Positions 5,432 to 29,256 of a stretch of DNA of 64,000 nucleotides are shown here, piece by piece. The DNA comes from Escherichia phage HY02, in the sequence record KM092515; one strand, 5' to 3'. Both the position numbers and the translations under genes were made by a program. The notes below the pieces were generated by a model, which was not told the DNA's origin, made no database searches, and saw only the letters and a list, made by a program, of their open reading frames with translations. Numbering within the stretch: position 1 is the stretch's first letter; every line of letters begins with the position of its first letter.

Positions 5432-5779
5432 ATGACATTTAAAGAGTTCTGTCAAGCCACTTTCATAATTGTTTTCTTAGTTGGGGCGGGTGTCTGGGGA
5501 GGATACTCTTACAGAGACTACCAAGTTGCTGAAGCTGAGTTAAGCAATGAGAAGCTAATAAGTGTTGCTAAAGATGCTTATCAGGAAGGATTAGTTACAC
5601 TGAGCACCAATTACAAAAATGATTTGAAAGATGTGCTTGCTAAGAATAAGCACACAAAAGAGGTACTAACATATGAAAAAACTAAGCCAGAGTTTTATAA
5701 TGTTTGTGTTACTGATAATTATGTCAGGGTGTTCAACGAACAAAGTGAGCAGTACATTCAAAAACTCCCAAGTAAGTGA
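5432..5779 (+). CDS. membrane protein, i-spanin-like (N-terminal TM helix, periplasmic helical domain)
   Basis: hydrophobic segment FIIVFLVGAGVWGGYSY then charged helical region; a lipoprotein ORF overlaps its 3' end in another frame. Confidence 0.4.
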   Translation: MTFKEFCQATFIIVFLVGAGVWGGYSYRDYQVAEAELSNEKLISVAKDAYQEGLVTLSTNYKNDLKDVLAKNKHTKEVLTYEKTKPEFYNVCVTDNYVRVFNEQSEQYIQKLPSK

Positions 5780-7236: not shown

Positions 7237-8022
7237 ATGGGTATTGTAAAAATCATCAATGGTGATATCTTTGCTGCATTTGATAAAGGTAAGTTTGACA
7301 TCATTGGTCATGGTTGTAACTGCATGAACCTAATGGGTGCAGGTATCGCTGACAAGATTTCTAAACTTTACCCAAAAGCATATGAGACCGATACAGAAGT
7401 TTATCTCTATGCAGGTGGTATAGGCCACAAACCCTGTGAGAATTTACTAGGTAATTTCTCTGTAGCACGTTTAAAACAAGGTCGTATAGCTAACCTTTAC
7501 ACTCAGCTTAAGACTGGTAAAGATGCCCGATACAGTGCTTTAGAGTCATCTTTGAAACAGCTTAACAGATACTGTGAAGTTAACCAGTTGAAGAAGGTTG
7601 GTCTACCTATGATTGGTGCAGGTATCGGTGGACTTGACCCTCAAGCTGTCACAGTTATCATCAATCAGGTGATGAAGAGTGTAGATGTTTATCTGTATGT
7701 CTATGAAGGCGAGATGTACCACAAGTTACGCTCAGGTTGGAAGAACTACTGTGAACCAGAATACTTTGCAGGTGTAGCAGTGTTCACGGATAACGCAGTT
7801 ACCCTCTTCAGACGAAGAAAAGGTAAGATACATCAAAGTAACCCTCCGGTTGAAAAGATGTCTCTAGGTAATGCTCTAGTTACCCACCTGTCGAAGAGCA
7901 ATCACAGAATGGCTGTGACATTTGGTAGTGATGCAGAAGCTTATATCTATGCAAGAACTGATGAGGATATCGAGGCAATCTTCTCTTCACCAGAAGTTAC
8001 CTTCTTAGACGCAAAGAACTAA
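7237..8022 (+). CDS. macro-domain (ADP-ribose binding/processing) protein
   Basis: N-terminal GDIF...DIIGHGCNCMNLMGAGIADKI and GLPMIGAGIGG loops resemble macro-domain glycine-rich motifs; C-terminal about 110 aa of unknown fold. Confidence 0.55.
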   Translation: MGIVKIINGDIFAAFDKGKFDIIGHGCNCMNLMGAGIADKISKLYPKAYETDTEVYLYAGGIGHKPCENLLGNFSVARLKQGRIANLYTQLKTGKDARYSALESSLKQLNRYCEVNQLKKVGLPMIGAGIGGLDPQAVTVIINQVMKSVDVYLYVYEGEMYHKLRSGWKNYCEPEYFAGVAVFTDNAVTLFRRRKGKIHQSNPPVEKMSLGNALVTHLSKSNHRMAVTFGSDAEAYIYARTDEDIEAIFSSPEVTFLDAKN

Positions 8023-8087
8023 GAAACTCTGTAGAATATTCACAATAGACTAAGCCTTTCTTATCTGGTAAATTTTTCAGGTAAGGG

Positions 8088-8277
8088 GGGCTTTTTCATT
8101 TCAGGATTGTGCAGGTATATTTCTATAGAGAAATCTGTAGAGAAAATTTTGAACTCCAAAGAGAAAATTCATTTTCAAACTGTGCAGGTAATCTCCAAAG
8201 GGCTTTTTCATTTTCAAAACGTGCAGACCCCGCTCAGGTCGGGCAAGAAAAATCATTTTAGAATCGTGCAGGTAGGT
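8088..8277. repeat. four direct copies of a roughly 22-bp motif TCATTTTCAAANNGTGCAGGTA
   Basis: GTGCAGGTA/GTGCAGACC at 8109, 8182, 8221 and 8266, each preceded by TTTTCATTTT. Confidence 0.6.
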
Positions 8278-8298
8278 TTTTATAGAGAGCCAGACCAA

Positions 8299-8329
8299 CC
8301 CCTCTCCCCCTCTTACTCCCCCTCTCCCC
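8299..8329 (-). repeat. C-rich tract; G-quadruplex-prone on the minus strand
   Basis: CCCCTCTCCCCCTCTTACTCCCCCTCTCCCC gives four G-runs of 4 or more on the complementary strand. Confidence 0.5.
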
Positions 8330-8451
8330 AAAAGTCAAGAGAAAAATTTGTAGCGGATTGAAAAATAATTCTTGATTTGTGTTCTGTTTTGTGGTAGTCG
8401 TGTGCGCCCGTTTCATTACAGTTTCGCCAAAGATATTTTTAAAATTTTTCT

Positions 8452-8480
8452 TGACTCTTTGAACGGGGTTATCTAGTATT
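8452..8480 (+). promoter_or_regulatory. sigma70-like promoter for the small-gene array
   Basis: TTGACT, 17-bp spacer, TAGTAT, immediately before the conserved leader. Confidence 0.4.
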
Positions 8481-8485
8481 TGCAT

Positions 8486-8542
8486 CAACGGGGAGGGAAT
8501 GACCTTCCCCACTAAATAAAGTCCTAAACTGGAGATTCAAAA
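8486..8542 (+). promoter_or_regulatory. conserved 5' leader (type A): stem-loop GGGGAGG-N8-CCTTCCCC, ACTAAATAAAGTCCTAAACTGGAGATTCAAAA, then ATG
   Basis: near-identical copies before ORFs at 8543, 10328, 11198, 12419, 12981, 13578 and 13907. Confidence 0.6.
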
Positions 8543-8923
8543 ATGAAATATCGTGCGCCTAAATTCATCAACAAAGACAACTTTCGTAGCGTACTGGAGA
8601 AGTCACTTGATGAAAATTTCAAAGGTAATGTGATTGTTGTTCACTCGTTCAATTTTAAGTATGATATCAACGGGAATAAAATTAACCATTACACGGCAAC
8701 CATGTTAGATGGTACTCTTTCAAGTGAAAAAACAATTCTACATGCACTTGCTGGGCGTGGTAAAAACCTGATAAGCTGCAATAAGAGACGTTATCAAGGT
8801 GGCGCATATGGTTATGATGATGCTGTTTACCATCTTGAAAATATGGGCTATTCAGTGGAGAAAGCTGGAGCGTCTCAAATAATTGGTAGTGATGGTTATG
8901 TGACAATATTCAAAATTAACTGA
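8543..8923 (+). CDS. hypothetical small early protein
   Basis: ORF preceded by conserved leader with GGAG RBS. Confidence 0.65.
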   Translation: MKYRAPKFINKDNFRSVLEKSLDENFKGNVIVVHSFNFKYDINGNKINHYTATMLDGTLSSEKTILHALAGRGKNLISCNKRRYQGGAYGYDDAVYHLENMGYSVEKAGASQIIGSDGYVTIFKIN

Positions 8924-8937
8924 TAAAGTACTTTACA

Positions 8938-8966
8938 GGGGGCTTATAGTTCGATAAAGTAAGCCC
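8938..8966 (+). other. conserved intergenic hairpin (type B) GGGGCTTA...TAAGCCCC
   Basis: GC-clamped hairpin followed by AGATAAAGAGCTTTACC, not U-rich; four copies with compensatory loop changes. Confidence 0.5.
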
Positions 8967-9011
8967 CAGATAAAGAGCTTTACCACTAAATCCTAAATTG
9001 GAGATTCAAAA

Positions 9012-9302
9012 ATGGCTATTATCAAAAACGTTGTAATTCCTGCAAAAACTCGTGATGACGCTCGCATTATGGCGAAAAAGTTAGGCGGGAAAGTGGTTGA
9101 CAACGGAAAACAATCTGCTGTAAGATGGGGTGTGAAGGCTGATAAACAGTTGAAGCTAAAAAATTCACCAATAAACCTTTTTGCATGTGTAAACACTATC
9201 GGGAAGACAAATGTATACACGAAAAAGGCATATATTAGACGCGTAGTCTTAACATCCCCCATTCGTACAATGAGAGGTTATGCAAAGCTGAAAATTAACT
9301 GA
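9012..9302 (+). CDS. hypothetical small early protein
   Basis: ORF preceded by CCTAAATTGGAGATTCAAAAATG. Confidence 0.6.
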   Translation: MAIIKNVVIPAKTRDDARIMAKKLGGKVVDNGKQSAVRWGVKADKQLKLKNSPINLFACVNTIGKTNVYTKKAYIRRVVLTSPIRTMRGYAKLKIN

Positions 9303-9316
9303 GAAAGTACTTTACA

Positions 9317-9346
9317 GGGGGCTTAAAAGTTGGTATCTTAAGCCCC
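9317..9346 (+). other. conserved intergenic hairpin (type B)
   Basis: GGGGCTTAA...TTAAGCCCC followed by AGATAAAGAGCTTTAC. Confidence 0.5.
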
Positions 9347-9387
9347 AGATAAAGAGCTTTACATAATCCTAAACTGGAGATTCAAAA

Positions 9388-9600
9388 ATGAACATTAATC
9401 AAAAACTGAAAACCGCCTCACAAGTCCTATTCACAGATGATGACTATTTCAATAAAGACCTCACAGGTTTGAAATCTCTTAAAGAGATTAAAGAGCGCAT
9501 GAAAATTTATGGAAAACCTCGGTTAGTTGGTGTATTCTCTAACTGTTATGTTTATCAGCTTAATGGTCATTACAATTTTACGATTACTATTTTATCCTAA
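9388..9600 (+). CDS. hypothetical small early protein
   Basis: ORF preceded by CCTAAACTGGAGATTCAAAAATG. Confidence 0.6.
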   Translation: MNINQKLKTASQVLFTDDDYFNKDLTGLKSLKEIKERMKIYGKPRLVGVFSNCYVYQLNGHYNFTITILS

Positions 9601-9615
9601 ACTGGAGATTCAAAA

Positions 9616-9912
9616 ATGAAATTATCAAATAAAGTCCGTGAAAACCTAAGCAAGTTACTCAACAAAATTGATTTTATCGAGACATCAAGGAATAGTCATG
9701 ATGTTATGGAATGGTTACACGGCAAAATAAAAGGCCGTCGTGTAGTGATTTGCTTATGGAATAGTTGCAGGGAGTATAAAAAACCTGTATTGCAAATTAA
9801 TGTTTATGATGATACTTATAAAAGCCCTGTTAAGTCTGAAAGTGATTTACTAGACTCTTATGAGATAACTGTAAATGGCAAAGTATCACGTAAAGAGGAA
9901 GCACTATGTTAA
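9616..9912 (+). CDS. hypothetical small early protein
   Basis: RBS motif CCTAAACTGGAGATTCAAAAATG overlaps the upstream stop codon. Confidence 0.6.
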   Translation: MKLSNKVRENLSKLLNKIDFIETSRNSHDVMEWLHGKIKGRRVVICLWNSCREYKKPVLQINVYDDTYKSPVKSESDLLDSYEITVNGKVSRKEEALC

Positions 9913-10238
9913 TGATGGGTATCACTGCAATCATCGCCATTATGGCACTATACAAGGCTTATAGCGCCTATAATCTGGCAAGTAAGGCAATCACCCAACA
10001 GGTTGATAATAGCCTTGTAATGAGCTTTCTAGAGCGTTTAAGCGATGAGCAAATAAAGCGGCTAGAAATGAGCTTCAGATTTAAATCGAGAACTTATCAA
10101 ATCAGCGACATTTTCAAAGATGATTTTCAGCTAGTGGATGATTATAATTCTCTGATAAATGCTTTAAATATCAGTGATTTAAAAGATTATCACGCTGTAA
10201 TTGTTCAAGAATTGAGCAAACGAAAACAAAACTGTTGA
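9906..10238 (+). CDS. hypothetical small early protein
   Basis: start overlaps upstream stop (translational coupling); no separate leader. Confidence 0.45.
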   Translation: MLMMGITAIIAIMALYKAYSAYNLASKAITQQVDNSLVMSFLERLSDEQIKRLEMSFRFKSRTYQISDIFKDDFQLVDDYNSLINALNISDLKDYHAVIVQELSKRKQNC

Positions 10239-10263
10239 CACTGATTTTTAGATAGATTAAATT
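10235..10263 (+). promoter_or_regulatory. sigma70-like early promoter
   Basis: TTGACA, 17-bp spacer, TAAATT; identical copy at 11104-11132. Confidence 0.5.
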
Positions 10264-10327
10264 ACACATCAACGGGGAGGCAATAACCTCCCTACTAAAT
10301 AAAGTCCTTAAACTAGGAGATTCAAAA

Positions 10328-10600
10328 ATGTATACTACTAACAACGGTCGTACTTTGAACGTAACACTGCGTCACTATGTGAATGGTGTAATGCACTTTG
10401 ATGATTTACAAGCTGAGCAACATATCTTAGATTGGCAAGTAGCAGGACTCCAAAAAACTGCTACAGGATACGGGAAAAAGATTCCAACTAGTTGGAAAGT
10501 ATACTATGAAGGACGTTTGCGCAGAATTTATCAAGATGTATGCAGTAATAGCGCATCAAGTTACATCATAGTAAAAGGTAAAAAACTGCATTTAGTATAA
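10328..10600 (+). CDS. hypothetical small early protein
   Basis: conserved type A leader upstream. Confidence 0.65.
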   Translation: MYTTNNGRTLNVTLRHYVNGVMHFDDLQAEQHILDWQVAGLQKTATGYGKKIPTSWKVYYEGRLRRIYQDVCSNSASSYIIVKGKKLHLV

Positions 10601-10612
10601 AGTACTTTACAA

Positions 10613-10641
10613 GGGGCTTATAGTTCGATAAAGTAAGCCCC
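10613..10641 (+). other. conserved intergenic hairpin (type B)
   Basis: GGGGCTTA...TAAGCCCC; near-identical to 8938-8966. Confidence 0.5.
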
Positions 10642-10685
10642 AGATAAAGAGCTTTACCACTAAATCCTAAATTGGAGATTCTAAA

Positions 10686-11090
10686 ATGACTATTAATAAT
10701 CGTGAGTTATCAATCTTAAAAGCACGTTTGACTGTCAACCGGATTAATGTTATTACATCATCAGCACCTGATGAGACATTGCACAATATTATCGGGAAGA
10801 TTCAAAGTGTTATCTTAGACGTTGAAAGTGTAAAAAACTCATTGGCTGACGTTGCAGCAGGTATCACGCTAGATGGTGCACAATATGAAATGGCAGACAT
10901 GTTAGGCAAATCAAAGGTAATGAATAAAGAGTTAGATTTGAAAATGTTTAGATTTGCTGTTAAAGTGTGGCTATCTGTCGAGTATGATGCTAATTTTGCA
11001 ATCGCTGATTTCTTTGCCACTTGGTTGCAACGTAATTTGGCAAATCATGATTTTCGTGATATCTGTGATGCAATTTATGCAGAACTCTGA
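10686..11090 (+). CDS. hypothetical small early protein
   Basis: preceded by CCTAAATTGGAGATTCTAAAATG. Confidence 0.6.
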   Translation: MTINNRELSILKARLTVNRINVITSSAPDETLHNIIGKIQSVILDVESVKNSLADVAAGITLDGAQYEMADMLGKSKVMNKELDLKMFRFAVKVWLSVEYDANFAIADFFATWLQRNLANHDFRDICDAIYAEL

Positions 11091-11103
11091 AAAAAAAAAA
11101 CTG

Positions 11104-11132
11104 TTGACACTGATTTTTAGATAGATTAAATT
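11104..11132 (+). promoter_or_regulatory. sigma70-like early promoter (duplicate of 10235-10263)
   Basis: TTGACACTGATTTTTAGATAGATTAAATT repeated verbatim. Confidence 0.5.
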
Positions 11133-11197
11133 ACACATCAACGGGGAGGGAATGACCTTCCCCACTAAGTAAAGTCCTTAAACTAGGAGATTCAAAA

Positions 11198-11401
11198 ATG
11201 GCTATTATTAACGGCTTAAACATTGAAACAACACACATCAAAGACATCAAAGTTGGTGATGTAGTCCTTTCCCACGGCGTAGAGAAAACTGTTACTGCAA
11301 AGGATATTAAAGAGGATTCTTTCATGGGTAGAACTCTCTTCGGTGATTCTTATTGCTTAGGTTATCTTGCAGTTTTAAAAGTTGTCAAAAATAATCGTTA
11401 A
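11198..11401 (+). CDS. hypothetical small early protein
   Basis: conserved type A leader upstream. Confidence 0.65.
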   Translation: MAIINGLNIETTHIKDIKVGDVVLSHGVEKTVTAKDIKEDSFMGRTLFGDSYCLGYLAVLKVVKNNR

Positions 11402-11413
11402 AGTACTTTACAA

Positions 11414-11442
11414 GGGGCTTAAAAGCTGATATCTTAAGCCCC
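11414..11442 (+). other. conserved intergenic hairpin (type B)
   Basis: GGGGCTTAA...CTTAAGCCCC. Confidence 0.5.
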
Positions 11443-11486
11443 AGATAAAGAGCTTTACCACTAAATCCTAAACTGGAGATTCAAAA

Positions 11487-12029
11487 ATGAAATGCTTTCA
11501 CGGTACTACTCAAGAAAACTTCATCAACCTGATTAATAACGGTGATAAACCATCAGGCGCATGGAATTGTTCGGATATGGACGGCAATTTTTACGTGTAT
11601 CCAGAAAATAAAATCTATGGCGACGATGAGGAAGAAATAGCATCAGAAGGTATCCAACAAGCTCTAGGAAATGCCACTATCACCGCAGCTTTCCAGATGA
11701 AAACCCAAAATATTGTTATCTTAGAACTAGATATTCCAGAGGATGAGCTAAATGATGATTATTCTTGTGATAATATGTCGAGTGTAGCAAGTTTTACAGA
11801 GTACTTTGATGTAAATTGGATTAAAAAGGTCTATACAACAGAGTTTAACGCTATGTATTCACCTTTTTGTCTTCCTTCATTGGATAACCCAAATTTAAAC
11901 TATCTTGATGAGTCTCTGGAGCTTCTCGCTAAAAGTGTTCAACATTCAGACAGTATTCAGGTTTTTTGTGACATCATGGATACACTGACAGGAAACATTG
12001 CAGAAGAGGATTTAAAGAGCTTTTTCTAA
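11487..12029 (+). CDS. hypothetical acidic early protein
   Basis: 180-aa ORF preceded by CCTAAACTGGAGATTCAAAAATG. Confidence 0.6.
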   Translation: MKCFHGTTQENFINLINNGDKPSGAWNCSDMDGNFYVYPENKIYGDDEEEIASEGIQQALGNATITAAFQMKTQNIVILELDIPEDELNDDYSCDNMSSVASFTEYFDVNWIKKVYTTEFNAMYSPFCLPSLDNPNLNYLDESLELLAKSVQHSDSIQVFCDIMDTLTGNIAEEDLKSFF

Positions 12030-12061
12030 AAACCTATGCAATCACCTTATAAACACTAATC

Positions 12062-12083
12062 AGCCCCTTGTAGGGGCTTTTAG
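12062..12083 (+). terminator. intrinsic terminator (weak U-tract)
   Basis: AGCCCC-TTGT-AGGGGCT followed by TTTAG. Confidence 0.45.
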
Positions 12084-12095
12084 AGGGCTTAAATC

Positions 12096-12329
12096 ATGTT
12101 GACAACCGTTTATCTCATCCTTTCTATTTGTAATGGTCATTCATGCGATTTTAAAGGGCTTGAGGAGTTTACAGGGAGTAAAGAAAATGCTATTCAAGTT
12201 TGCCAGATAGCAAGGCAAGACTATCCCGCCAGTGATGATATACAATGTTACTTTAAGACAGAAGATAGCGACGGCGTTTATTTTGATAGCGTCGATGGTC
12301 AATATGAAATTATCATTGAAAAAGACTAG
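12096..12329 (+). CDS. hypothetical protein
   Basis: 77-aa ORF; lacks the conserved leader and overlaps a TTGACA motif, so coding status is uncertain. Confidence 0.3.
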   Translation: MLTTVYLILSICNGHSCDFKGLEEFTGSKENAIQVCQIARQDYPASDDIQCYFKTEDSDGVYFDSVDGQYEIIIEKD

Positions 12330-12418
12330 ACAAGCCTGATAAAAATCTGTAAATTGTCAATCAACGGGGAGGGAATGAACTTCCCCACTAAACAAAGTCC
12401 TAAACTGGAGATTCAAAA

Positions 12419-12760
12419 ATGGCTTATGTAACCGTAATTACCGATAAAGCTGACTCATCTTGGTCAACTCAAGTCAGTGATAAGATGTCGCCTATGCAGT
12501 GCCTAAAATACTTTGAGCAGTGGAACAAAGGCGAGGATGTAAGCCCCTTTCAGGTAATGCAAATCATCCATACAGATAACGAAGGGAATAAAACTACCTT
12601 AAACAGTGAATACTACGCAAGCCGTTTTGAAACGAGAAGTAAAACAATGAAGATTTTACGTGAATCCGGCTATTCTCATATTGCCGCGCTAATCTGGGAT
12701 GACCTGCTAAAAAGCCAGCGTATCAGCTATGTAAAACCTGAAAAAATATTCATCAGTTAA
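12419..12760 (+). CDS. hypothetical small early protein
   Basis: conserved type A leader upstream. Confidence 0.65.
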   Translation: MAYVTVITDKADSSWSTQVSDKMSPMQCLKYFEQWNKGEDVSPFQVMQIIHTDNEGNKTTLNSEYYASRFETRSKTMKILRESGYSHIAALIWDDLLKSQRISYVKPEKIFIS

Positions 12761-12980
12761 TCAACAACTTACAAAAAACTTTTAAAAAAGTGTTGACAAC
12801 TCCCCTTGACATTGGTAACTTTGTTCGAGGGGGTTTATCTAAAAGGGATTAACTTAAAAGATTCTTTATAGATAAACTTAAAAAATTGCTTGCAATCAGC
12901 TATCAAAACAAGTAAATTACTAATCAACGGGAAGGCAATAACCTCCCCACTAAATAAAGTCCTAAACTGGAGATTCTAAA

Positions 12981-13511
12981 ATGAACAAATTTCAAGCTAT
13001 CAACTTCATTCGTTCAAATGCTGTAATGTCTAAGCCTGTTAAAGATACCTATGAATTTCGTTGCAATGGTGTACACTTTGCAACCATTACCAAATCAGAA
13101 AACGGGGCTTATTACGTCCATCGTCGTAATGTTTCCACCGTTGTAGTCTCTCACTTTATGCAAGCTGTCGCGGAACTTCTCCCGATGTTTTTAGGTCTTT
13201 ACTTAGATGATTGTAAAAACGTTCACAATCACGTTAAAAACCTTTTAAATGGTTATAAAATGGCTTATGAACGTTCTATCAAGTCCTTGAACAAGTTCTA
13301 TAAAGCACCTGTAAATACCGTTTCAATGGCCTACGGCATAGGTGGCTGGACTGTTAACCTTTCTCTAGTGGAAGAAATCGAGCTTTATGATTTACGTCCT
13401 AGCGGTTACTCTAAGACACTGGGAGAAGGTTTAACGTTCAATATCAAGAACTTAGAAAAAACTTTAAAAGATATTGAAAAAGACATTGACGAGACAATCA
13501 AAAATCTGTAA
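12981..13511 (+). CDS. hypothetical small early protein
   Basis: conserved type A leader upstream. Confidence 0.65.
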   Translation: MNKFQAINFIRSNAVMSKPVKDTYEFRCNGVHFATITKSENGAYYVHRRNVSTVVVSHFMQAVAELLPMFLGLYLDDCKNVHNHVKNLLNGYKMAYERSIKSLNKFYKAPVNTVSMAYGIGGWTVNLSLVEEIELYDLRPSGYSKTLGEGLTFNIKNLEKTLKDIEKDIDETIKNL

Positions 13512-13577
13512 ATTGTCAATCAACGGGGAGGGGATGACCTTCCCCACTAAATAAAGTCCTAAACTGGAGTTATCAAG

Positions 13578-13841
13578 ATGGAAAACGTAGAATTAACCAC
13601 ACTATTGCAAATTGCAACTGACAAAGAAGACGTAGCACTGTTTCACCGCATCGAAAGCGATTTGTTCAATGGTGAAATCATCAAAGAATCTTATGAAGTT
13701 GTCGGATTCAAAGATGGTAAAGCGTTTGGATTCTTTGACCTCGACAAAAGCAACGCGGTTATAAAATATGATGTTTTATCTTGTGAGATTCTTACAAAAT
13801 ACAACGAAAAAAGGCTTGCAACATACGCCAACATGCAGTAA
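13578..13841 (+). CDS. hypothetical small early protein
   Basis: type A leader with variant RBS CTGGAGTTATCAAGATG. Confidence 0.6.
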   Translation: MENVELTTLLQIATDKEDVALFHRIESDLFNGEIIKESYEVVGFKDGKAFGFFDLDKSNAVIKYDVLSCEILTKYNEKRLATYANMQ

Positions 13842-13906
13842 ATTACTAATCAACGGGGAGGGATGGCCTCCCTACTAAATAAAACCTTAAACTAGGAGAT
13901 TCTAAA

Positions 13907-14155
13907 ATGGCTACTATCCGCGCAACTGTTAACGAATTCGGCTTTTGCTCTCTGGATGTTAAATTTGACCTTGTAGGCACTGATAACGCCTTTGAGATGG
14001 TGAAAGGTCTTATCTGTCAGACCATCAAAGACTATAACCCTTCTGATGAGTTCTGGAAAGAAACAAAACAGGAAGTTCTTAAAGAGGGTTATTCTTATCA
14101 CTATTGGGGTGAAAAAATTGTCTCCCTGTACTACGACAAAGAAGGTACTAACTAA
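13907..14155 (+). CDS. hypothetical small early protein
   Basis: conserved type A leader upstream; last gene before the terminator. Confidence 0.6.
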   Translation: MATIRATVNEFGFCSLDVKFDLVGTDNAFEMVKGLICQTIKDYNPSDEFWKETKQEVLKEGYSYHYWGEKIVSLYYDKEGTN

Positions 14156-14195
14156 ACGCCGCAACGGGGCTAAATAGCCCCAGATACCTTTATAC

Positions 14196-14218
14196 AGCCC
14201 CTCACAGGGGCTTTTTTA
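14196..14218 (+). terminator. intrinsic terminator ending the early + strand block
   Basis: AGCCCCT-CACA-GGGGCT followed by TTTTTT; a second hairpin GGGGCTAAATAGCCCC lies at 14166-14181. Confidence 0.7.
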
Positions 14219-14219
14219 C

Positions 14220-15849
14220 GTCTATCCAATCCTTATACAATACCTTTCCTCACCTTTTCAGAATCTTATCAGACCTTAAAAGCAATAACTCTATAGTCTA
14301 CTCTATAGCCTTTTATCAAATCAACTTAAATATAAGCCAATAACCCCAGAAAGGGGATGGCCCATTTAAACGCTCTATAAAGCGCTATAACAGCCTTATC
14401 AACCTAACTTAAGGGATTGCATTAACTCACCCTTAAAAGCTCTTTACAGGGCTTTATAGAGGCTTAAAAGAATCTTATAAGGGTATAAGCTAATAGGTTG
14501 GCTAGTATCTTGTGAATAACTAAACAATCCCCTTGATAGTCACTAAAAAGTATGTTATAGGGGGCTATAAAGTTACTTCAAAGTTACGTGATAGATAGCT
14601 TAAAAGTTACGTAAATGCTAGCCCCCTTAACATTTTCTTAACAATTTCTTAACAATCCCCTACATAGTTATGCTTGTTAGAGACTTGTTAGCCCCTTGTT
14701 AAATCTCTGTTACAACCACGTAAAAGCCTTGTAAGAACCTTTGGCATAGCCTTAAAAGCCCCTGTAAAGCCCTATAAAGAGCTATCCATACAGTTGAGGG
14801 GTAAATACTAGGAAGAGGCTTAAAAGAACTTATAAGGGGCTATAGAGAGCTTTTAAGAGGCATGTTTAAGGAATCACTAAGAAATAAAGGGAACTATAAG
14901 AAAAGAGATAGTGACCATGTTAATAGCTTGTTAAAAAGATTAAACACTTGTTAGAAACTTGTTAATTATCTTAACAAAAATAACTCTTTAAAATTAACTT
15001 GTTAGCTCTTGTTAGTCATCTGTTAAGATTCTGTAAAGCCTATTCAGCACTTGTTAGAAAACTGTTACAGCCTTGTTAGTTCTGTTAAGAACCTGTTAAT
15101 ACCTTTGAAGAGTTGTTAAGAAGATGTGAGAACTGTTAAGAGATTGTTAAGGATATTTTAAAATTTTGCAAAGTACTTGTAAGGGAGCTGTTAAGGGCTA
15201 CCAAGCAGATATACATCTTCTACAGATATTTTTCAGTTCCTTCAAAGACCCTAAAAAATGACTTGATAGCCCTATTTTATAAAAATTTTAAAATTCTGAA
15301 TAATTACCTAGACAGTCTTTTAAAAATACAGGCATAAACAGGCTTATAAGATACCTTGTTAGTACCGTGTTAGACCTTGTGGGGTAAGGTCTGCAAAGAT
15401 ATTCCTGTTAAGTTTGTTAAAACAGTCTATATAGAGGCTTAGTATCCCCTAGTGAACACCTATAGAGGGTAACATAGCTAACCTAATGGGTTACTGTTAA
15501 GTAACACAGATAACCTAGAGATTAAGAGGTGTATAGGAGCTTCTAAGATGGTGTAGAGAGATGGTTAAGGTGATTGTATAGGTTGTTAAGAAGGCTTGTT
15601 AGAGGGCTTGTTAGAAGGGCTATACAGAGGGGCTATTAAGACCACTAGATAGATACTAAGATACTATATAGTACTATATAACTATATATAGAGAGTAAGC
15701 TTAAGAAGGTTGTTAAGAAGGGTAGATATTTTATTCACATATGATGGTGACCCAGAGGTTGGGACAACCGATAAAATTTTATAAAAAATATAAATTTCGT
15801 AAATTTTACTCAATAAAAAGCCCCCAATTAAGGAGGCTCTTAAGATATT
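14220..15849. repeat. ORF-free region with dense short direct repeats (CTTGTTAG / CTGTTAAG family) and an AT-rich CTATATA tract; candidate origin or regulatory hub
   Basis: no ORF over 1.6 kb; more than 25 copies of (C/G)TTGTTA(G/A) and CTGTTAAG, densest at 14930-15200; CTATATA three times at 15661-15695; recurring CTTAAAAG/CTTATAAG/CTATAAAG words at 14340-14870. Confidence 0.6.
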
Positions 15850-25284: not shown

Positions 25285-25313
25285 TTGACAACCACTAAAA
25301 AATAATGTTAAAG
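25285..25313 (+). promoter_or_regulatory. sigma70-like promoter upstream of the tRNA cluster
   Basis: TTGACA, 17-bp spacer, TTAAAG. Confidence 0.4.
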
Positions 25314-25340
25314 TGGTTACATAGAGTTTGAAAAGTTTAT

Positions 25341-25417
25341 CTCTGTTTAGCTCAGCTTGGTAGAGCGTTCCGTTTGGGGCGGTAAGGCCGGAGGTTCAAG
25401 TCCTCCAACAGAGACCA
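25341..25417 (+). tRNA. tRNA-Pro (UGG)
   Basis: acceptor CTCTGTT/AACAGAG, T-arm GGAGG-TTCAAGT-CCTCC, encoded CCA; anticodon loop TTTGGGG. Confidence 0.55.
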
Positions 25418-25424
25418 AATTAAT

Positions 25425-25502
25425 GTTCCAGTAGACAAAATGGTATAGTCACCACTCTTTCAAAGTGGATATTTGAGGGTTCAAATCCATTCTGGAACGC
25501 CA
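25425..25502 (+). tRNA. tRNA-Glu (UUC)
   Basis: acceptor GTTCCAG/CTGGAAC, anticodon arm CCACT-CTTTCAA-AGTGG, TTCAAAT T-loop with imperfect T-stem. Confidence 0.5.
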
Positions 25503-25509
25503 GTTTTGA

Positions 25510-25582
25510 CAGAAGACCAATTACAGCAAACTTAATCTTATTCATCTGAAGGTAAATCGGACAAAGAAGAGATTTGGTCTGG
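25510..25582 (+). ncRNA. Y-RNA-like element 1 (stem-closed, no tRNA-like domain)
   Basis: 5' CAGAAGACC-AATT...ACAGCAAA and 3' ATTT-GGTCTGG can pair as a terminal stem. Confidence 0.4.
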
Positions 25583-25593
25583 TCATTAAGAAT

Positions 25594-25670
25594 TGCGGGT
25601 ATAGAGAAAGGGCGTCTCACATGTCTCATTAGCATGGTATCGGCAGGTTCGACTCCTGCACCCGCCTCCA
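25594..25670 (+). tRNA. tRNA with CAU anticodon (Met or Ile2), atypical D region
   Basis: T-arm GCAGG-TTCGACT-CCTGC, acceptor TGCGGGT/ACCCGCC with 1-72 mismatch, anticodon arm CATGT-CTCATTA-GCATG, encoded CCA. Confidence 0.4.
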
Positions 25671-25676
25671 ATTTTG

Positions 25677-25736
25677 CAGAAGACCGTATTCAGCAATAAA
25701 CTACTTTTTGCGGATAAAAGAAAAAACACGGTCTGG
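25677..25736 (+). ncRNA. Y-RNA-like element 2
   Basis: 5' CAGAAGACC-GTAT...TCAGCAA and 3' ACAC-GGTCTGG; stem bases co-vary relative to element 1. Confidence 0.4.
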
Positions 25737-25747
25737 CAACGTATTAA

Positions 25748-25821
25748 GGTTAGGAAGCACATGAGGTATGTGCGGTCGCCTGTTAAGCGAATGGCACAGG
25801 GTTCGAATCCCTGACTAACCG
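25748..25821 (+). tRNA. tRNA-Asn (GUU)
   Basis: acceptor GGTTAGG/ACTAACC, D-arm GCAC..GTGC, anticodon loop CTGTTAA, T-arm CAGGG-TTCGAAT-CCCTG. Confidence 0.6.
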
Positions 25822-25832
25822 CAAATTTAAAT

Positions 25833-25920
25833 GTGTCGTTATCCCGTAGATGGTAGCGGTGGGGACTGTAAATCCCTTGTCATTGAGACTCGGTAGGTTC
25901 GACTCCTACACGGCACACCA
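25833..25920 (+). tRNA. tRNA-Tyr (GUA), long variable arm
   Basis: acceptor GTGTCGT/ACGGCAC, anticodon arm GGGGA-CTGTAAA-TCCCT, T-arm GTAGG-TTCGACT-CCTAC, encoded CCA. Confidence 0.6.
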
Positions 25921-25981
25921 ATTTTGAGAGGGCTATTTAGCCCCTCCCTTAAAGGGTTCTTACGAGTATCCTTTAAAGGAG

Positions 25982-26054
25982 CAGAAGACCAAATACAGCA
26001 AGTTATTTAAAATTTCAAGCCAATTCAATTTTGAAAATTTAAAACTTGGTCTGG
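25982..26054 (+). ncRNA. Y-RNA-like element 3 (YrlB-like, no tRNA-like domain)
   Basis: 5' CAGAAGACC-AAAT...ACAGCAAG and 3' CTT-GGTCTGG; interior holds an AT-rich palindrome. Confidence 0.4.
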
Positions 26055-26067
26055 CTCAACAAATTTA

Positions 26068-26199
26068 CAGAAGACCGTTTACAGCAAAACTTAAACAATC
26101 TATTTCTCCGGTAAAGAAAAGGCGAAGGTTCGATTCCTTCACTCGGCAGATGTCGAGTTGGTGTAATGGTAGCACTTAAGATGATAAACAACGGTCTGG
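26068..26199 (+). ncRNA. Y-RNA-like element 4 (YrlA-like) with permuted tRNA-like domain
   Basis: terminal stem AGACCGTT/AACGGTCT; internally T-arm GAAGG-TTCGATT-CCTTC (26124-26140), acceptor-like helix ACTCGGC/GTCGAGT capped by AGAT (26141-26158), D-arm GTGT-AATGGTA-GCAC (26161-26175); T-arm precedes D-arm. Confidence 0.55.
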
Positions 26200-26204
26200 T
26201 AATT

Positions 26205-26339
26205 ATCTTTGTAGATAAGTTATTAAGCTTACCTGTGAGTATGCGACCACAAAGGTGAAAGGGTAAATTCTAGATTTAAACCCAAAAAGACACATCGCTA
26301 CAGACCTTAAGCAAGTCTGGGTAGCTTATCTACAAAGAT
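26205..26339 (+). repeat. structured element closed by a perfect 15-bp inverted repeat
   Basis: ATCTTTGTAGATAAG (26205-26219) and CTTATCTACAAAGAT (26325-26339) flank about 105 nt containing hairpin CAGAC-CTTAAGCAA-GTCTG. Confidence 0.5.
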
Positions 26340-26347
26340 AATTTAAT

Positions 26348-26423
26348 GGAAGTGTAGCAGAATGGTGATGCGGCAGACTTTTAATCTGACAGGCGATGGG
26401 TTCGAATCCCTCCACTTCTACCA
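26348..26423 (+). tRNA. tRNA-Lys (UUU)
   Basis: acceptor GGAAGTG/CACTTCT, anticodon stem CAGA/TCTG with loop CTTTTAA, encoded CCA; T-stem has two mismatches shared with the CUU paralogue. Confidence 0.5.
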
Positions 26424-26427
26424 ATAT

Positions 26428-26504
26428 GGTTCAGTCGCAGATAAGGTAATGCAAGGGTCTCATAAGCCCTATGAATGTGGGTTCGATTCCCATCTGAACC
26501 TCCA
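26428..26504 (+). tRNA. tRNA-Met (CAU)
   Basis: acceptor GGTTCAG/CTGAACC, anticodon arm AGGGT-CTCATAA-GCCCT, T-arm GTGGG-TTCGATT-CCCAT, encoded CCA. Confidence 0.65.
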
Positions 26505-26505
26505 A

Positions 26506-26581
26506 GCTGGTATAGTTAAGAAGGTTATAACACTCCCCTGATAAGGGAACATCGGTGGTTCGATTCCACCTACCAGTACCA
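26506..26581 (+). tRNA. tRNA-Ile (GAU)
   Basis: acceptor GCTGGTA/TACCAGT, D-arm GTTA..TAAC, anticodon loop CTGATAA, T-arm GGTGG-TTCGATT-CCACC, encoded CCA. Confidence 0.65.
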
Positions 26582-26596
26582 ATTTCAATAAAGTTG

Positions 26597-26625
26597 TTGA
26601 CATTGAGATGTGACTACTTTATAGT
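26597..26625 (+). promoter_or_regulatory. internal sigma70-like promoter within the tRNA cluster
   Basis: TTGACA, 17-bp spacer, TATAGT. Confidence 0.5.
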
Positions 26626-26828
26626 AACCTTAGTTTTCGTTGCGTAGCGTCTATTTTGCAAATTTAAAATAAATGCAAACGACAATGTTTTTCTGGCAGT
26701 AGCTTGATAGGCTAAACACCAGTGAGGTCTTCCAATCCCTCATCAAAGAATTTGGCGTACTCGCCCACGGTATGATTAATAAGGTGGGCATCTTTAAGGG
26801 CTTTCTAAGAGAGTCTTTAAAGATTAAT

Positions 26829-26905
26829 GCACCCTTAGTTCAATTGGATAGAGCAACGGTCTTCTAAATCGTTAGTTACAGGTTCGAATCCTGTAGGGTG
26901 TGCCA
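26829..26905 (+). tRNA. tRNA-Arg (UCU)
   Basis: acceptor GCACCCT/AGGGTGT, anticodon arm ACGGT-CTTCTAA-ATCGT, T-arm ACAGG-TTCGAAT-CCTGT, encoded CCA. Confidence 0.65.
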
Positions 26906-27047
26906 ATTAGTTAGCAGATTACTTAGACGACCTAAGCGGGTCTTCCTGTAGGGAGGTGGTCTGTATCTCATGTTTTCCAGAACATGTAAATAATCTGAGA
27001 AGGGGCTTTACAGTGTTGAGATAATACGGTAAGCTTCGAATTATAGT

Positions 27048-27130
27048 ATGGGACGATGTTAAGACTCTAAGGCATGAGCAACGGCCTCCAAAACCGTTTC
27101 AAAGGGGTTCAACTCCTCCGTCCCATGCCA
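27048..27130 (+). tRNA. tRNA-like gene, possibly Trp (CCA); oversized D region
   Basis: acceptor ATGGGAC/GTCCCAT, T-loop TTCAACT, anticodon-like loop CTCCAAA, encoded CCA; 83 nt and D-arm not foldable by eye. Confidence 0.35.
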
Positions 27131-27143
27131 AAGTCTTATTAGG

Positions 27144-27231
27144 GGTAGGTAGCGGCTAATGGTAGCCAAACTGTCTTGAAAACAGTTGCCACTGTAGAGA
27201 TACGGTGAGGGTTCGACTCCTTTACTTACCG
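27144..27231 (+). tRNA. tRNA-Ser (UGA), long variable arm
   Basis: acceptor GGTAGGT/ACTTACC, D-stem GGC/GCC, anticodon arm AACTGT-CTTGAAA-ACAGTT, T-loop TTCGACT. Confidence 0.55.
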
Positions 27232-27489
27232 CCTAATAAGATTTTAAAGCCAAGCTTCATTCGGATGTTGCTTTGGTATCCCTCGTGTATTGTCGTACAC
27301 ACTGATAAAACACCTAGTAGGTGTCACGGAGAAGAGATAATATCAAGCTCTCCAAAGGTTCTAGTCACCGGATTAAACAAGACTATGCAAAGGCCTTTTT
27401 AGGTCTTTTTAGAGGGCTTCTAAGGTTATTACGGCTTGTTGTGGAACCTTGTTGCTTAGGTTCTTAGAAGTTCTCTAAAAAGATTTAAT

Positions 27490-27567
27490 GGGAGATTGAC
27501 GGTAATTGGTAAACCTACCATCCTTAGAAGTTGGTGTTTGAGGGTTCGAATCCCTTGTCTCCCACCA
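27490..27567 (+). tRNA. tRNA with UAG anticodon (Leu-type) but short variable arm
   Basis: acceptor GGGAGAT/GTCTCCC, T-arm GAGGG-TTCGAAT-CCCTT, anticodon loop CTTAGAA, encoded CCA. Confidence 0.4.
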
Positions 27568-27574
27568 AATTAAT

Positions 27575-27650
27575 GCAGGTGTAGCAAAATGGTTATGCGG
27601 CTGACTCTTAATCAGTAAGACGATGGGTTCAATTCCCTCCACCTGTACCA
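27575..27650 (+). tRNA. tRNA-Lys (CUU)
   Basis: acceptor GCAGGTG/CACCTGT, anticodon stem CTGA/TCAG with loop CTCTTAA, encoded CCA; body paralogous to 26348-26423. Confidence 0.5.
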
Positions 27651-27656
27651 AACAAT

Positions 27657-27732
27657 GGGGTCATAGTTTATATGGTTAAAATTCGAGTTTTGCAAACTTG
27701 GGAACTGAGTTCAATTCTCAGTGACTCCACCA
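27657..27732 (+). tRNA. tRNA-Ala (UGC)
   Basis: acceptor GGGGTCA/TGACTCC, anticodon loop TTTGCAA, T-arm CTGAG-TTCAATT-CTCAG, encoded CCA. Confidence 0.6.
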
Positions 27733-27738
27733 ATTAGT

Positions 27739-27813
27739 GCATCCATAGTTTAAACGGGAAAATTACAGTCTTCCAAACTGAGGTTGAGGGTTCGATTCCC
27801 TCTGGATGCTCCA
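27739..27813 (+). tRNA. tRNA-Gly (UCC)
   Basis: acceptor GCATCCA/TGGATGC, anticodon stem CAGT/ACTG with loop CTTCCAA, T-arm GAGGG-TTCGATT-CCCTC, encoded CCA. Confidence 0.65.
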
Positions 27814-27820
27814 AATTAAT

Positions 27821-27896
27821 GCTCCTATCGTATAATTGGCTATTACGGTTGCCTTGTAAGCAACTTATCAGGGTTCGAATCCTTGTGGGAGCACCA
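27821..27896 (+). tRNA. tRNA-Thr (UGU)
   Basis: acceptor GCTCCTA/TGGGAGC, anticodon arm GTTGC-CTTGTAA-GCAAC, T-arm CAGGG-TTCGAAT-CCTTG, encoded CCA. Confidence 0.7.
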
Positions 27897-27993
27897 ATTT
27901 AGAGGTCAAGTGAAAGACCGCTTTGAGTCAACTGAAGACCGTAACAAATTCCACGGAGTTGAGTTAGCGGCACAACTTCAGACCTCTTTTCAC

Positions 27994-28068
27994 ACTCGCT
28001 TAGTTTATATGGTAAAACATCACCCTTACAAGATGAAGAAAAAGGTTCAAGTCCTTTAGTGAGTACCA
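27994..28068 (+). tRNA. tRNA-Val (UAC)
   Basis: acceptor ACTCGCT/AGTGAGT, anticodon loop CTTACAA, T-arm AAAGG-TTCAAGT-CCTTT, encoded CCA. Confidence 0.6.
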
Positions 28069-28069
28069 T

Positions 28070-28147
28070 GTTCCAGTATCCCAATTGGCAGAGGATGCAA
28101 GCTCAAACCTTGTACTAGTGACGGTTCGAATCCGTCTTGGAACACCA
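28070..28147 (+). tRNA. tRNA with CAA anticodon (Leu-type) but short variable arm
   Basis: acceptor GTTCCAG/TTGGAAC, anticodon arm GCAAG-CTCAAAC-CTTGT, T-arm GACGG-TTCGAAT-CCGTC, encoded CCA. Confidence 0.45.
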
Positions 28148-28152
28148 ATTTT

Positions 28153-28228
28153 GCAGGATTAGTTCAAATGGATAGAGCAACAGTCTACGAAGCTGTTAAT
28201 AGGGGTTCGAATCCCTTATCCTGCGCCA
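28153..28228 (+). tRNA. tRNA-Arg (ACG)
   Basis: acceptor GCAGGAT/ATCCTGC, anticodon arm ACAGT-CTACGAA-GCTGT, T-arm AGGGG-TTCGAAT-CCCTT, encoded CCA. Confidence 0.65.
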
Positions 28229-28247
28229 ATTTAAAGAGGCTATTTAA

Positions 28248-28805
28248 ATGAGATACTTGAAGTATGCTTCATGGATTTTCTTAGCTTTGCTAGAACCATT
28301 GGCAGCAATCTTAGCAGTTATCTTAGCACCTTTTGTAGTTCCATTTTACAGTGAGAAGAAAGGACACTTACCTTTTGGATTCAGATGGATGGAGACATAT
28401 GACAACCTGATTGATGGTGATGAAGGTCACGTTAAAAGATGGGCTAAGATTAGAAAGATTGGTAAGCTTGGTGTCTATTTGCAGAGAGTTGGATGGCTCT
28501 GGAGAAACAAAGCTTATAACTTCTCTTACCATGTGTTAGGAAGAGATGTAAAAGATGTTACTAAGTGGAAAGGTAATATCAACGTAAGTTCTGACCCTGA
28601 AGATAATCAGACAGGTTATCTCCTAATGTGGAACAGTAATGCTTGGGGATTATTCGCTTTTATCCCATCAATTAAAGTCTTTGGTAAACAATTCTACTGG
28701 AGAATTTATGTTGGATGGAAGCTAAAAAGTGTTGTCCCAGAAGAAAGAGCATTCTCAAGGGAAAGAGTTATGTTGGCATTCTTTATTCATCCACTGAGAA
28801 AGTAA
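28248..28805 (+). CDS. hypothetical membrane protein embedded in the tRNA cluster
   Basis: 185-aa ORF with N-terminal hydrophobic helix (IFLALLEPLAAILAVILAPFVVPF); lies between tRNA-Arg and tRNA-Gln. Confidence 0.5.
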   Translation: MRYLKYASWIFLALLEPLAAILAVILAPFVVPFYSEKKGHLPFGFRWMETYDNLIDGDEGHVKRWAKIRKIGKLGVYLQRVGWLWRNKAYNFSYHVLGRDVKDVTKWKGNINVSSDPEDNQTGYLLMWNSNAWGLFAFIPSIKVFGKQFYWRIYVGWKLKSVVPEERAFSRERVMLAFFIHPLRK

Positions 28806-28813
28806 AGATTTAA

Positions 28814-28889
28814 AGGGGATTAGTTTACAAGGTTAAAACCTCGGTCTTTGAAATCGAAGAAGTTGGTTCAATTCCAACATCCCCCGCCA
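28814..28889 (+). tRNA. tRNA-Gln (UUG)
   Basis: acceptor AGGGGAT/ATCCCCC with unpaired 1-72, D-arm GTTT..AAAC, anticodon arm TCGGT-CTTTGAA-ATCGA, T-arm GTTGG-TTCAATT-CCAAC, encoded CCA. Confidence 0.65.
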
Positions 28890-28891
28890 AT

Positions 28892-28970
28892 GCTCCATTA
28901 CTCCAATTGGCAGAGAGGCCAGACTTAAAATCTGTGTTATGTATCGGTTCGAATCCGATATGGAGTACCA
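28892..28970 (+). tRNA. tRNA with UAA anticodon (Leu-type), atypical architecture
   Basis: acceptor GCTCCAT/ATGGAGT (alternative TACTCCA/TGGAGTA), anticodon stem CAGA/TCTG with loop CTTAAAA, T-arm ATCGG-TTCGAAT-CCGAT, encoded CCA. Confidence 0.45.
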
Positions 28971-28975
28971 AATTT

Positions 28976-29051
28976 AGCGGTATAGCATAACTGGCAATGC
29001 AGCAGTCTCTGAAGCTGTCTTATTAAGGTTCAAATCCTTATGCCGCTGCCA
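28976..29051 (+). tRNA. tRNA-Gln (CUG)
   Basis: acceptor AGCGGTA/TGCCGCT (A1-U72), D-arm GCAT..ATGC, anticodon arm GCAGT-CTCTGAA-GCTGT, T-arm TAAGG-TTCAAAT-CCTTA, encoded CCA. Confidence 0.55.
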
Positions 29052-29082
29052 CTTCTAAGGATTCTTACGAGAGTCCTTAGAA

Positions 29083-29158
29083 GTGGCCTTATCATAAATG
29101 GTAATGACCCATGCTGTGAACATGGTCTATACGGGTTCAAATCCCGTAGGTCACCCCA
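29083..29158 (+). tRNA. tRNA-His (GUG)
   Basis: acceptor GTGGCCT/AGGTCAC, anticodon arm CCATG-CTGTGAA-CATGG, T-arm ACGGG-TTCAAAT-CCCGT, encoded CCA. Confidence 0.7.
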
Positions 29159-29163
29159 ATTTA

Positions 29164-29240: not shown

Positions 29241-29256
29241 ATTTCAAAGGTGCTTA

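Follow-up and report, generated by a model that had tools for sequence, protein, structure and literature searches.

What does a GC-rich hairpin do between the small early genes of a phage? The question is raised by the 64,000-nucleotide (nt) stretch of Escherichia phage HY02 (sequence record KM092515) analysed here and referred to as the window, in which four intergenic hairpins lie between positions 8,938 and 11,442. A preliminary description made from the sequence alone had regarded them as possible RNase III or RNase E sites, attenuators or 3' stabilisers that segment one polycistronic early transcript. Many Felixounavirus (Felix O1-like) genomes match this region at 88-93% identity, and the window represents the early region of such a phage. 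Phages of the Felix O1 type are in wide use for typing and biocontrol of Salmonella and E. coli. We consider it likely that each hairpin is one component of a composite promoter/hairpin cassette placed between the small early genes of this Felix O1-like phage. From the sequence features, conservation pattern, covariation and gene insertions and deletions observed here, we infer promoter activity, a transcription start site and a role of the hairpin in RNA.

The sequence of the cassette has been seen before. The Felix O1 genome paper, according to which the organisation and timing of transcription in this phage are not known, contains "direct repeats" of 57 and 39 base pairs (bp), which correspond to the cassette unit and to a second intergenic unit that we call type B, and which are listed as repeats only (Whichard et al. 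2010, PMC3185647). The 57-bp repeat, CTTTACATGGGGCTTAAAAGTCTGTAAAGTAAGCCCCAGATAAAGAGCTTTACCACT, is the same sequence as the cassette, which the wV8 record (EU877232) labels DR_1, DR_7 and DR_9, the labels for cassette and type B unit taken together being DR_1, DR_7, DR_8 and DR_9. The sequence is already known as a repeat, and neither a promoter nor a structure nor a role was proposed for it in the Felix O1 and wV8 sources. In the wV8 record, one cassette hairpin, at 12062-12106 (5657-5701 of our locus L002), carries the annotation of a minus-strand Rho-independent terminator and overlaps DR_7/DR_9.

The hairpins belong to a single intergenic repeat

The pattern GGGGCTTA-N{9,15}-TAAGCCCC has exactly four matches in the window (Table 1), all on the + strand and each with a spacer of 13 nt, and GGGGCTTA-N13-TAAGCCCC was matched in none of 100 shuffles. 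Directly 3' of every stem, at 8968, 9347, 10642 and 11443, stands AGATAAAGAGCTTTAC with 0 mismatches. The exact pattern match and the shuffles confirm the four hairpins with a common stem and downstream sequence of the preliminary description, in which the coordinates of the last two copies are correct and the starts of the first two are each one base too low. The hairpins of copies 1 and 3 are identical, and two loop bases distinguish that of copy 2 from that of copy 4. What had been called covarying loops is more precisely a covarying ninth stem pair, U.G or A-U among the window copies, accompanied by loop differences, most of which affect the central bases of a -10-like hexamer (TAAAGT versus TATCTT).

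A repeat finder assigned the hairpins to a single 99-nt repeat family (D2) of four copies, whose unit of about 95 nt spans from the stop codon of a small open reading frame (ORF) to the ATG of the next one. The stop codons lie at or within the 5' flank of the cassettes, all genes here are on the + strand, and the ORFs beside the cassettes encode small phage proteins of PHROG families of unknown function.

A conserved, predicted sigma70-type promoter overlaps the hairpin

A promoter scan found TTTACA-N17-TAAAGT or TTTACA-N17-TATCTT at all four copies in the window, with the -10 hexamer placed in the loop and the 3' arm, the predicted start at the A directly 3' of the stem, and the stem at positions -28 to -1 of the predicted promoter. 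Relatives were gathered with anchors free of hairpin, -35 and -10 sequences, which gave 112 distinct copies; nhmmer over all fetched loci was more useful for this collection than a second scan with the 14-mer TAAAGTACTTTACA, whose matches were mostly due to chance. In the alignment of the 112 copies the -35 TTTACA is invariant, and in the loop only the T and A of the -10 are so, the final T being kept in at least 90%. Indeed, TAnnnT is found in 111 of them at a spacing of 17 (n = 104) or 18 bp (n = 7), in the form of 13 different hexamers. Furthermore, the TGn of an extended -10 is present in 27 of 45 distinct contexts (about 60%, against about 6% expected), seven Kolesnikvirus copies included.

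Since the hairpin is embedded in this conserved sigma70-type promoter, transcription of each downstream gene probably begins at a start site of its own. The proposal of a purely RNA signal that cuts one polycistronic transcript finds no support in a locus where each of them sits within TTTACA-N17-TAnnnT. In Felix O1, the 57-bp repeat stands upstream of genes 16 and 20 (PMC3185647), which are among the genes with maximal expression 5 min after infection.

Two further promoter candidates in the flanks were rejected. By eye, the downstream flank suggested a middle promoter of the MotA type (AGCTTTA-N11-TAAAYT), whose TAAAYT abuts the GGAG Shine-Dalgarno sequence, so that its transcript would lack the Shine-Dalgarno; the fact that no T4-like polymerase-modifying functions are reported for Felix O1 (PMC3185647) also counts against it. 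A second, upstream promoter in the 5' flank, with TGATAAAGT as extended -10 and the hairpin at the 5' end of the transcript as in type B, was flagged in copy 1 only, and its TG and first T are not conserved in the other copies.

The hairpin has two predicted tiers and is conserved as a structure

Folds of 70 nt at the four window copies have energies of -21 to -23 kcal/mol and z-scores of -3.2 to -4.6. In these folds the 5' flank TAAAGTACTTTA, which includes most of the -35, pairs with the 3' flank TAAAGAGCTTTA in an AU-rich lower stem of 11 bp, on which a 3x3 internal loop and the 9-bp GC stem follow, giving about 20 bp in a structure of about 60 nt. The hairpin as first delimited is too short in that it lacks this lower stem, and the downstream sequence shared by all four copies is better read as the putative transcript start and the 3' strand of the lower stem. 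When divergent copies are added to those of the window, z-scores range from -3.2 to -7.7, the divergent copies forming 22-24 bp. RNAalifold independently predicts both tiers.

The loop measures 11 nt in 68 of the 112 copies and 9-14 nt in most. A U-tract 3' of the stem is absent in all of more than 110 copies, AGATAAAG following the stem instead, so that the hairpin is most likely not a classical terminator. A terminator scan flagged none of the four cassettes and found true U-tract terminators nearby, at 8052-8093 and 14196-14212; together with loops of 11-13 nt, this supports the earlier statement that the hairpins are not canonical intrinsic terminators. A search of window positions 8000-14500 with the Rfam 15 covariance models, at E up to 1, gave no match at the cassettes.

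Compensatory changes were assessed in three ways, since the MAFFT alignment (A1) shifts the GGGGTTATC/GATAGCCCC class by one base and a structure-aware count and a covariance-model alignment were added for this reason. In the MAFFT alignment, 88.6% of cells are paired, against 33-53% with slid partners, and the covariation score of 0.091 (0.059 in shuffles) was reached by none of 500. The structure-aware count, made from the stem ends, gives T-A in 85 and A-T in 26 copies at pair 7, A-T in 83 and T-A in 21 at pair 8, and C-G, T.G, A-T or T-A at pair 9; over the nine upper pairs it gives 79 G.U cells versus a single A.C cell, an asymmetry that designates the + strand as the folded one. In the covariance-model alignment, which includes Erwinia and Cronobacter phages and which, being fitted to the structure, is biased in its favour, 96.2% of cells are paired (32-56% with slid partners), the covariation score is 0.125 (0.064 in shuffles; reached by 0 of 500), and double changes occur at five pairs, among them GC to UA in each tier. 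Selection on the structure, in the + strand, is thus supported by compensatory changes and by G.U wobbles confined to that strand. In this respect the idea of an RNA signal was well founded; a purely RNA signal was not, as it overlooked the conserved sigma70-type promoter. A function of the minus strand was considered and rejected, the mismatches of the relatives being G.U on the + strand (79 versus 1) and all genes here lying on that strand.

The layout is kept in divergent relatives

In Erwinia phage M7 and phage phi63_307 (Kolesnikvirus), the same layout is built on a different stem, GGTGTTT../..AAGCACC. The promoters read TTTACA-N17/18-TAGTAT, TAGTCT or TAATCT, the flanks still pair, the U-tract is still absent, and the folds have z-scores of -5.9 to -7.3. 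In a second Kolesnikvirus hairpin family, GGGGTTA..TAACCCC, the -35 is either TTTACA or TTGCAA and the spacing is unchanged.

A decayed cassette was also observed (L076, 5445-5507), with TTTATA for TTTACA, CACCTT at -10 and a mismatched stem, directly before a true U-tract terminator that closes the early gene block. Promoter and hairpin signals are degraded together in this copy.

Single genes are gained, lost and exchanged between cassettes

Gene order was compared in five phages, namely the window, wV8, Felix O1, H12 and REP9. The slot between the 126-amino-acid (aa) and 98-aa genes contains, depending on the phage, {96-aa, 70-aa}, {96-aa}, {170-aa}, {97-aa, 170-aa} or nothing, and every gene of this slot is bounded by cassettes. 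In Felix O1, three genes are missing between two cassettes. The 70-aa ORF (9388-9600) is not at this position in wV8, REP9, H12 and Felix O1, and is flanked on both sides by the 27-nt ribosome-binding-module repeat ATCCTAAACTGGAGATTCAAAAATGAA; it looks like a single-gene insertion that would have arisen by recombination between ribosome-binding modules. Furthermore, variants of the 5' flank, the stem and the 3' flank are found in mixed combinations, as expected if recombination occurs inside the cassettes.

Proposed working of the cassette

At the DNA level, the cassette would act as a host sigma70 promoter in which the hairpin's 5' arm serves as the 17-bp spacer behind the -35 TTTACA. The -10 (TAnnnT, often with TGn) would extend from the loop into the beginning of the 3' arm, whose GC-rich remainder would constitute the discriminator, and transcription would start at the A directly after the stem, producing a leader of about 44 nt with the shared ribosome-binding module. 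At the RNA level, read-through from the upstream gene would carry the whole region, which may then fold into the two-tier hairpin of about 60 nt, with a lower stem in which the -35 region pairs with the initial 15 nt of the leader, then the small internal loop and the GC upper stem. Such a hairpin would damp or process read-through RNA and cap the upstream message at its 3' end. The data fit attenuation, RNase III-type processing and 3'-end protection of the upstream RNA alike; a role as RNase III-type site or 3' stabiliser appears plausible from the modelled structure, and the irregular helix of about 20-24 bp obtained when the lower stem is included makes the RNase III idea more credible than the 8-bp stem alone did. 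Finally, the recurrence of the unit of about 95 nt between many genes would provide the homology for recombination that inserts, deletes or swaps single genes.

A more specific version, which we hold to be unlikely, is that these approximately 60 bp carry two co-evolving signals, a sigma70 promoter and a T7-like RNase III (or similar) hairpin, such that cleavage in the internal loop and fresh initiation would yield nearly identical downstream 5' ends and leave the upstream message capped by a GC hairpin. If true, each early gene would yield one and the same monocistronic RNA species regardless of whether its own promoter is active. The composite cassette itself predicts the start sites of at least four early genes here and of up to ten per genome in relatives, and would explain how single genes are freely gained and lost in the early region.

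Several points weigh against the composite cassette. The promoter scan as a whole is not enriched (34 sites versus 25.4 +/- 5.5 in shuffles), so that the case for the promoter rests on the conservation pattern; its hexamers match the consensus at only 4 of 6 positions, a GC-rich discriminator usually weakens a promoter, and literature searches found neither mapped transcript 5' or 3' ends nor reports of RNase III cleavage for Felix O1-like phages. As to the structure, the four window copies fold about equally well on the minus strand (-25 kcal/mol), and the wobble asymmetry marks the + strand without distinguishing RNA from single-stranded DNA, G.T being the least destabilising DNA mismatch. 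In some recombinant copies the lower stem is interrupted (for example at pair 7-60, in 9 of 112), and many stem positions are invariant and hence uninformative either way. The copies are linked by descent and recombination, and sequence counts therefore overstate the number of independent events. Lastly, the second Kolesnikvirus hairpin family has no lower stem, the 3' flank repeat being absent; with its varied -35, this family indicates that the common denominator is the promoter rather than the lower stem.

Among the alternatives at the RNA level, a signal without any promoter, that is, RNase III/RNase E processing or a barrier to 3' exonucleases on a long early transcript, would account for the structure selected on the + strand and for the absent U-tract, and the two-tier helix of about 20 bp, interrupted by an internal loop, is broadly as large as an RNase III substrate. 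We nevertheless regard it as very unlikely, because it leaves unexplained why T-A...T, 17-18 bp from an invariant TTTACA, is all that the loop conserves, its other bases being free to change, why TGn is enriched ten-fold just upstream, and why TTTACA and TTGCAA are swapped at the same spacing in a different Erwinia-phage hairpin family; the unusually large loop of 11-13 nt also fits promoter spacing more easily. It is possible, though doubtful, that RNase III processes the extended hairpin as it does the sites separating the early genes of T7, a proposal compatible with the composite cassette as its RNA-level part: a cut in or near the internal loop would keep the GC hairpin attached to the upstream message and give a downstream 5' end close to that of the promoter. 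The helix of 20-24 bp, with a symmetric internal loop of 2-3 nt that is predicted to be kept in Felixounavirus variants and Kolesnikvirus, agrees with this proposal, as do the intergenic position between early genes and the missing U-tract, whereas the lower stem, rich in AU, is weak and has imperfections in many copies, and no Rfam family matches.

Termination or attenuation of upstream transcription, possibly aided by RNA polymerase at the overlapping promoter, would have a precedent in the PeSL (promoter-early stem-loop) unit of T4-like phages, a stem-loop of which cut expression as much as rrnB T1 when placed before lacZ (PMC2839356; PMC4122927), and in bacteria, where overlapping promoters raise termination at weak terminators (10.64898/2026.08.19.745784); one wV8 copy is moreover annotated as a terminator, though on the minus strand. 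This explanation appears quite unlikely to us, as a U-tract is found in none of more than 110 copies, the loops are of 11-13 nt, the scan that calls the two nearby U-tract terminators calls none of the cassettes, and the bacterial promoter-coupled terminators have a T-tract and another geometry, with the stem over the -35. That the dyad is instead a DNA operator, with GGGGCTTA..TAAGCCCC and/or the flanking TAAAGnnCTTTA palindromes as binding sites of a dimeric regulator from phage or host that would shut the promoter off, is highly improbable. The dyad does cover positions -28 to -1 of the predicted promoter, and TAAAGnnCTTTA occurs on both sides of each hairpin and is enriched in the window (26 matches with at most one mismatch versus 5.9 expected). 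However, divergent copies lose the palindromy of the flanks and keep the complementarity between them (TAGATTTCTTTA pairs with TAAAGAGATTTA), the asymmetries are almost all G.U-compatible on one strand (79 versus 1), which fits a folded strand and not a symmetric protein site, and no candidate regulator was identified. For the first of these reasons TAAAGnnCTTTA was rejected as a palindromic operator and is now read as part of the lower stem.

Features of the region

Table 1. Location in the window of the parts of the four cassettes, with the basis of each assignment.
Feature	Position	Strand	Basis or detail
Copy 1, extended two-tier hairpin	8924..8982	+	Predicted fold, -23.2 kcal/mol, z -4.56; TAAAGTACTTTA pairs TAAAGAGCTTTA, 3x3 internal loop below GC stem
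Copy 1, upper hairpin GGGGCTTAT/GTAAGCCCC, loop 11 nt	8939..8967	+	Exact pattern match
Copy 1, predicted sigma70-type promoter TTTACA, 17 bp, TAAAGT; predicted start A8968	8932..8960	+	Promoter scan; -35 and TAnnnT conserved in relatives
Copy 1, predicted leader (AGATAAAGAGCTTTACC...), ribosome-binding module CCTAAATTGGAGATTCAAAAATG, ATG of 96-aa ORF	8968..9014	+	Repeat family D4
Copy 2, extended two-tier hairpin	9303..9361	+	Predicted fold, -21.1 kcal/mol, z -3.20
Copy 2, upper hairpin GGGGCTTAA/TTAAGCCCC	9318..9346	+	Exact pattern match
Copy 2, predicted promoter TTTACA, 17 bp, TGgTATCTT (extended -10); predicted start A9347	9311..9339	+	Promoter scan; TGn count
Copy 2, predicted leader, ribosome-binding module, ATG of 70-aa ORF (insertion relative to wV8)	9347..9390	+	Gene-order and junction comparison
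Copy 3, extended two-tier hairpin; first three bases are the upstream stop TAA	10598..10656	+	Predicted fold, -21.6 kcal/mol, z -4.50
Copy 3, upper hairpin, same as copy 1	10613..10641	+	Exact pattern match
Copy 3, predicted promoter TTTACA, 17 bp, TAAAGT; predicted start A10642	10606..10634	+	Promoter scan
Copy 3, predicted leader, ribosome-binding module, ATG of 134-aa ORF	10642..10688	+	Repeat families
Copy 4, extended two-tier hairpin; first three bases are the upstream stop TAA	11399..11457	+	Predicted fold, -21.3 kcal/mol, z -4.21
Copy 4, upper hairpin GGGGCTTAA/TTAAGCCCC	11414..11442	+	Exact pattern match
Copy 4, predicted promoter TTTACA, 17 bp, TGaTATCTT (extended -10); predicted start A11443	11407..11435	+	Promoter scan; TGn count
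Copy 4, predicted leader, ribosome-binding module, ATG of 180-aa ORF	11443..11489	+	Repeat families

The cassettes of Table 1 alternate with the type B intergenic cassette, found at 8451-8546, 10235-10330, 11104-11200, 12327-12421, 12903-12983, 13486-13580 and 13829-13909. Its promoter is near consensus (TTGACA/TTGACT/TAGACA-N17-TAAATT/TAGTAT), and its hairpin, GGGGAGG..CCTTCCCC, stands about 10 nt past the -10, which would place it at the 5' end of the transcript, and is followed by the shared ribosome-binding module CCTAAACTGGAGATTCAAAAATG. In KhF phage records, type B hairpins are annotated as minus-strand terminators.

Other repeats were noticed in the window. Between the true terminator and the first type B promoter, at 8154-8271, lie three direct repeats CTCCAAAG..TTTTCATTTTCAAA.CGTGCAG, spaced 39-45 nt start-to-start and with an aligned core of 34 nt; Erwinia phage M7 (L229, 5492-5956) has four similar repeats, TTTTTCATTTTCAAxxTGTGCATAG, in the equivalent gap, which indicates that the array is conserved across genera. 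Three repeats of about 47 nt, rich in TGTTAA/CTTGTTA, are found at 14918-15129 near a switch in gene orientation and are candidates for binding sites or origin-like repeats. A dense cluster of tRNA genes at about 25300-29300, seen as T-arm-like repeat families (GGTTCGAATCC), is expected for Felix O1-like phages. Lastly, a sub-threshold match to Hammerhead_3 at 14011-14074 (22.8 bits for a gathering score of 48.5, E = 0.25) is most likely due to chance.

Comparison with known systems

Like an intrinsic terminator, the cassette has a GC-rich stem just 3' of a stop codon; it differs from intrinsic terminators by the lack of a U-tract and by a loop of 11-13 nt instead of 3-8. In T7, processing at the RNase III sites between early genes (for instance R1.1) leaves a protective 3' hairpin on the upstream message. 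These sites and the predicted hairpin of the cassette are alike in their irregular form of about 60 nt, interrupted by an internal loop and without U-tract, and in their location between early genes. Unlike for the cassette, no overlap of these T7 sites with a promoter is known.

A T-tract occupies the spacer in the promoter-coupled terminators of bacteria, whose stem lies over the -35, with transcript 3' ends located some 10 bp upstream of the start site (Fletcher et al. 2026, preprint, 10.64898/2026.08.19.745784). There as in the cassette, one and the same DNA between tandem genes specifies a hairpin in the upstream RNA and a promoter for the downstream gene, but the stem of the cassette covers the spacer, the -10 and the discriminator, and no T-tract is present.

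The resemblance to PeSL extends to the whole design. PeSL units of about 100 bp are known from T4-like phages (RB49/phi1, T4/PST, KVP40/nt-1), where promoter activity, attenuator/terminator activity and the formation of mini-circles were shown experimentally (Arbiol et al. 2010, PMC2839356; Comeau et al. 2014, PMC4122927). PeSL and the cassette share an AT-rich upstream sequence, sigma70-like -35 and -10 elements with a 17-bp spacer, the T4/PST consensus TTTACW-N17-TAYWAT being close to the cassette promoter, and a Shine-Dalgarno sequence at the 3' end. In both, a stem-loop lies in or at the promoter, in PeSL usually between the two promoter elements or overlapping the -10 and with G-T pairs tolerated, and both occupy a variable region, where they separate small genes to which no function is assigned and where single genes are inserted, deleted or replaced. 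On the other hand, the Ounavirinae are not T4-like and the sequences are unrelated, the cassette is known here from its sequence alone, and its flanks add a lower helix by which the -35 and the first transcribed bases would be paired in read-through RNA. Given the different lineage and sequence, we treat the cassette as an analogue of PeSL and not as a homologue. It would bring the cassette design of the T4-like phages, in an unrelated sequence, to a second lineage of myoviruses, and would extend a known idea rather than introduce a new principle.

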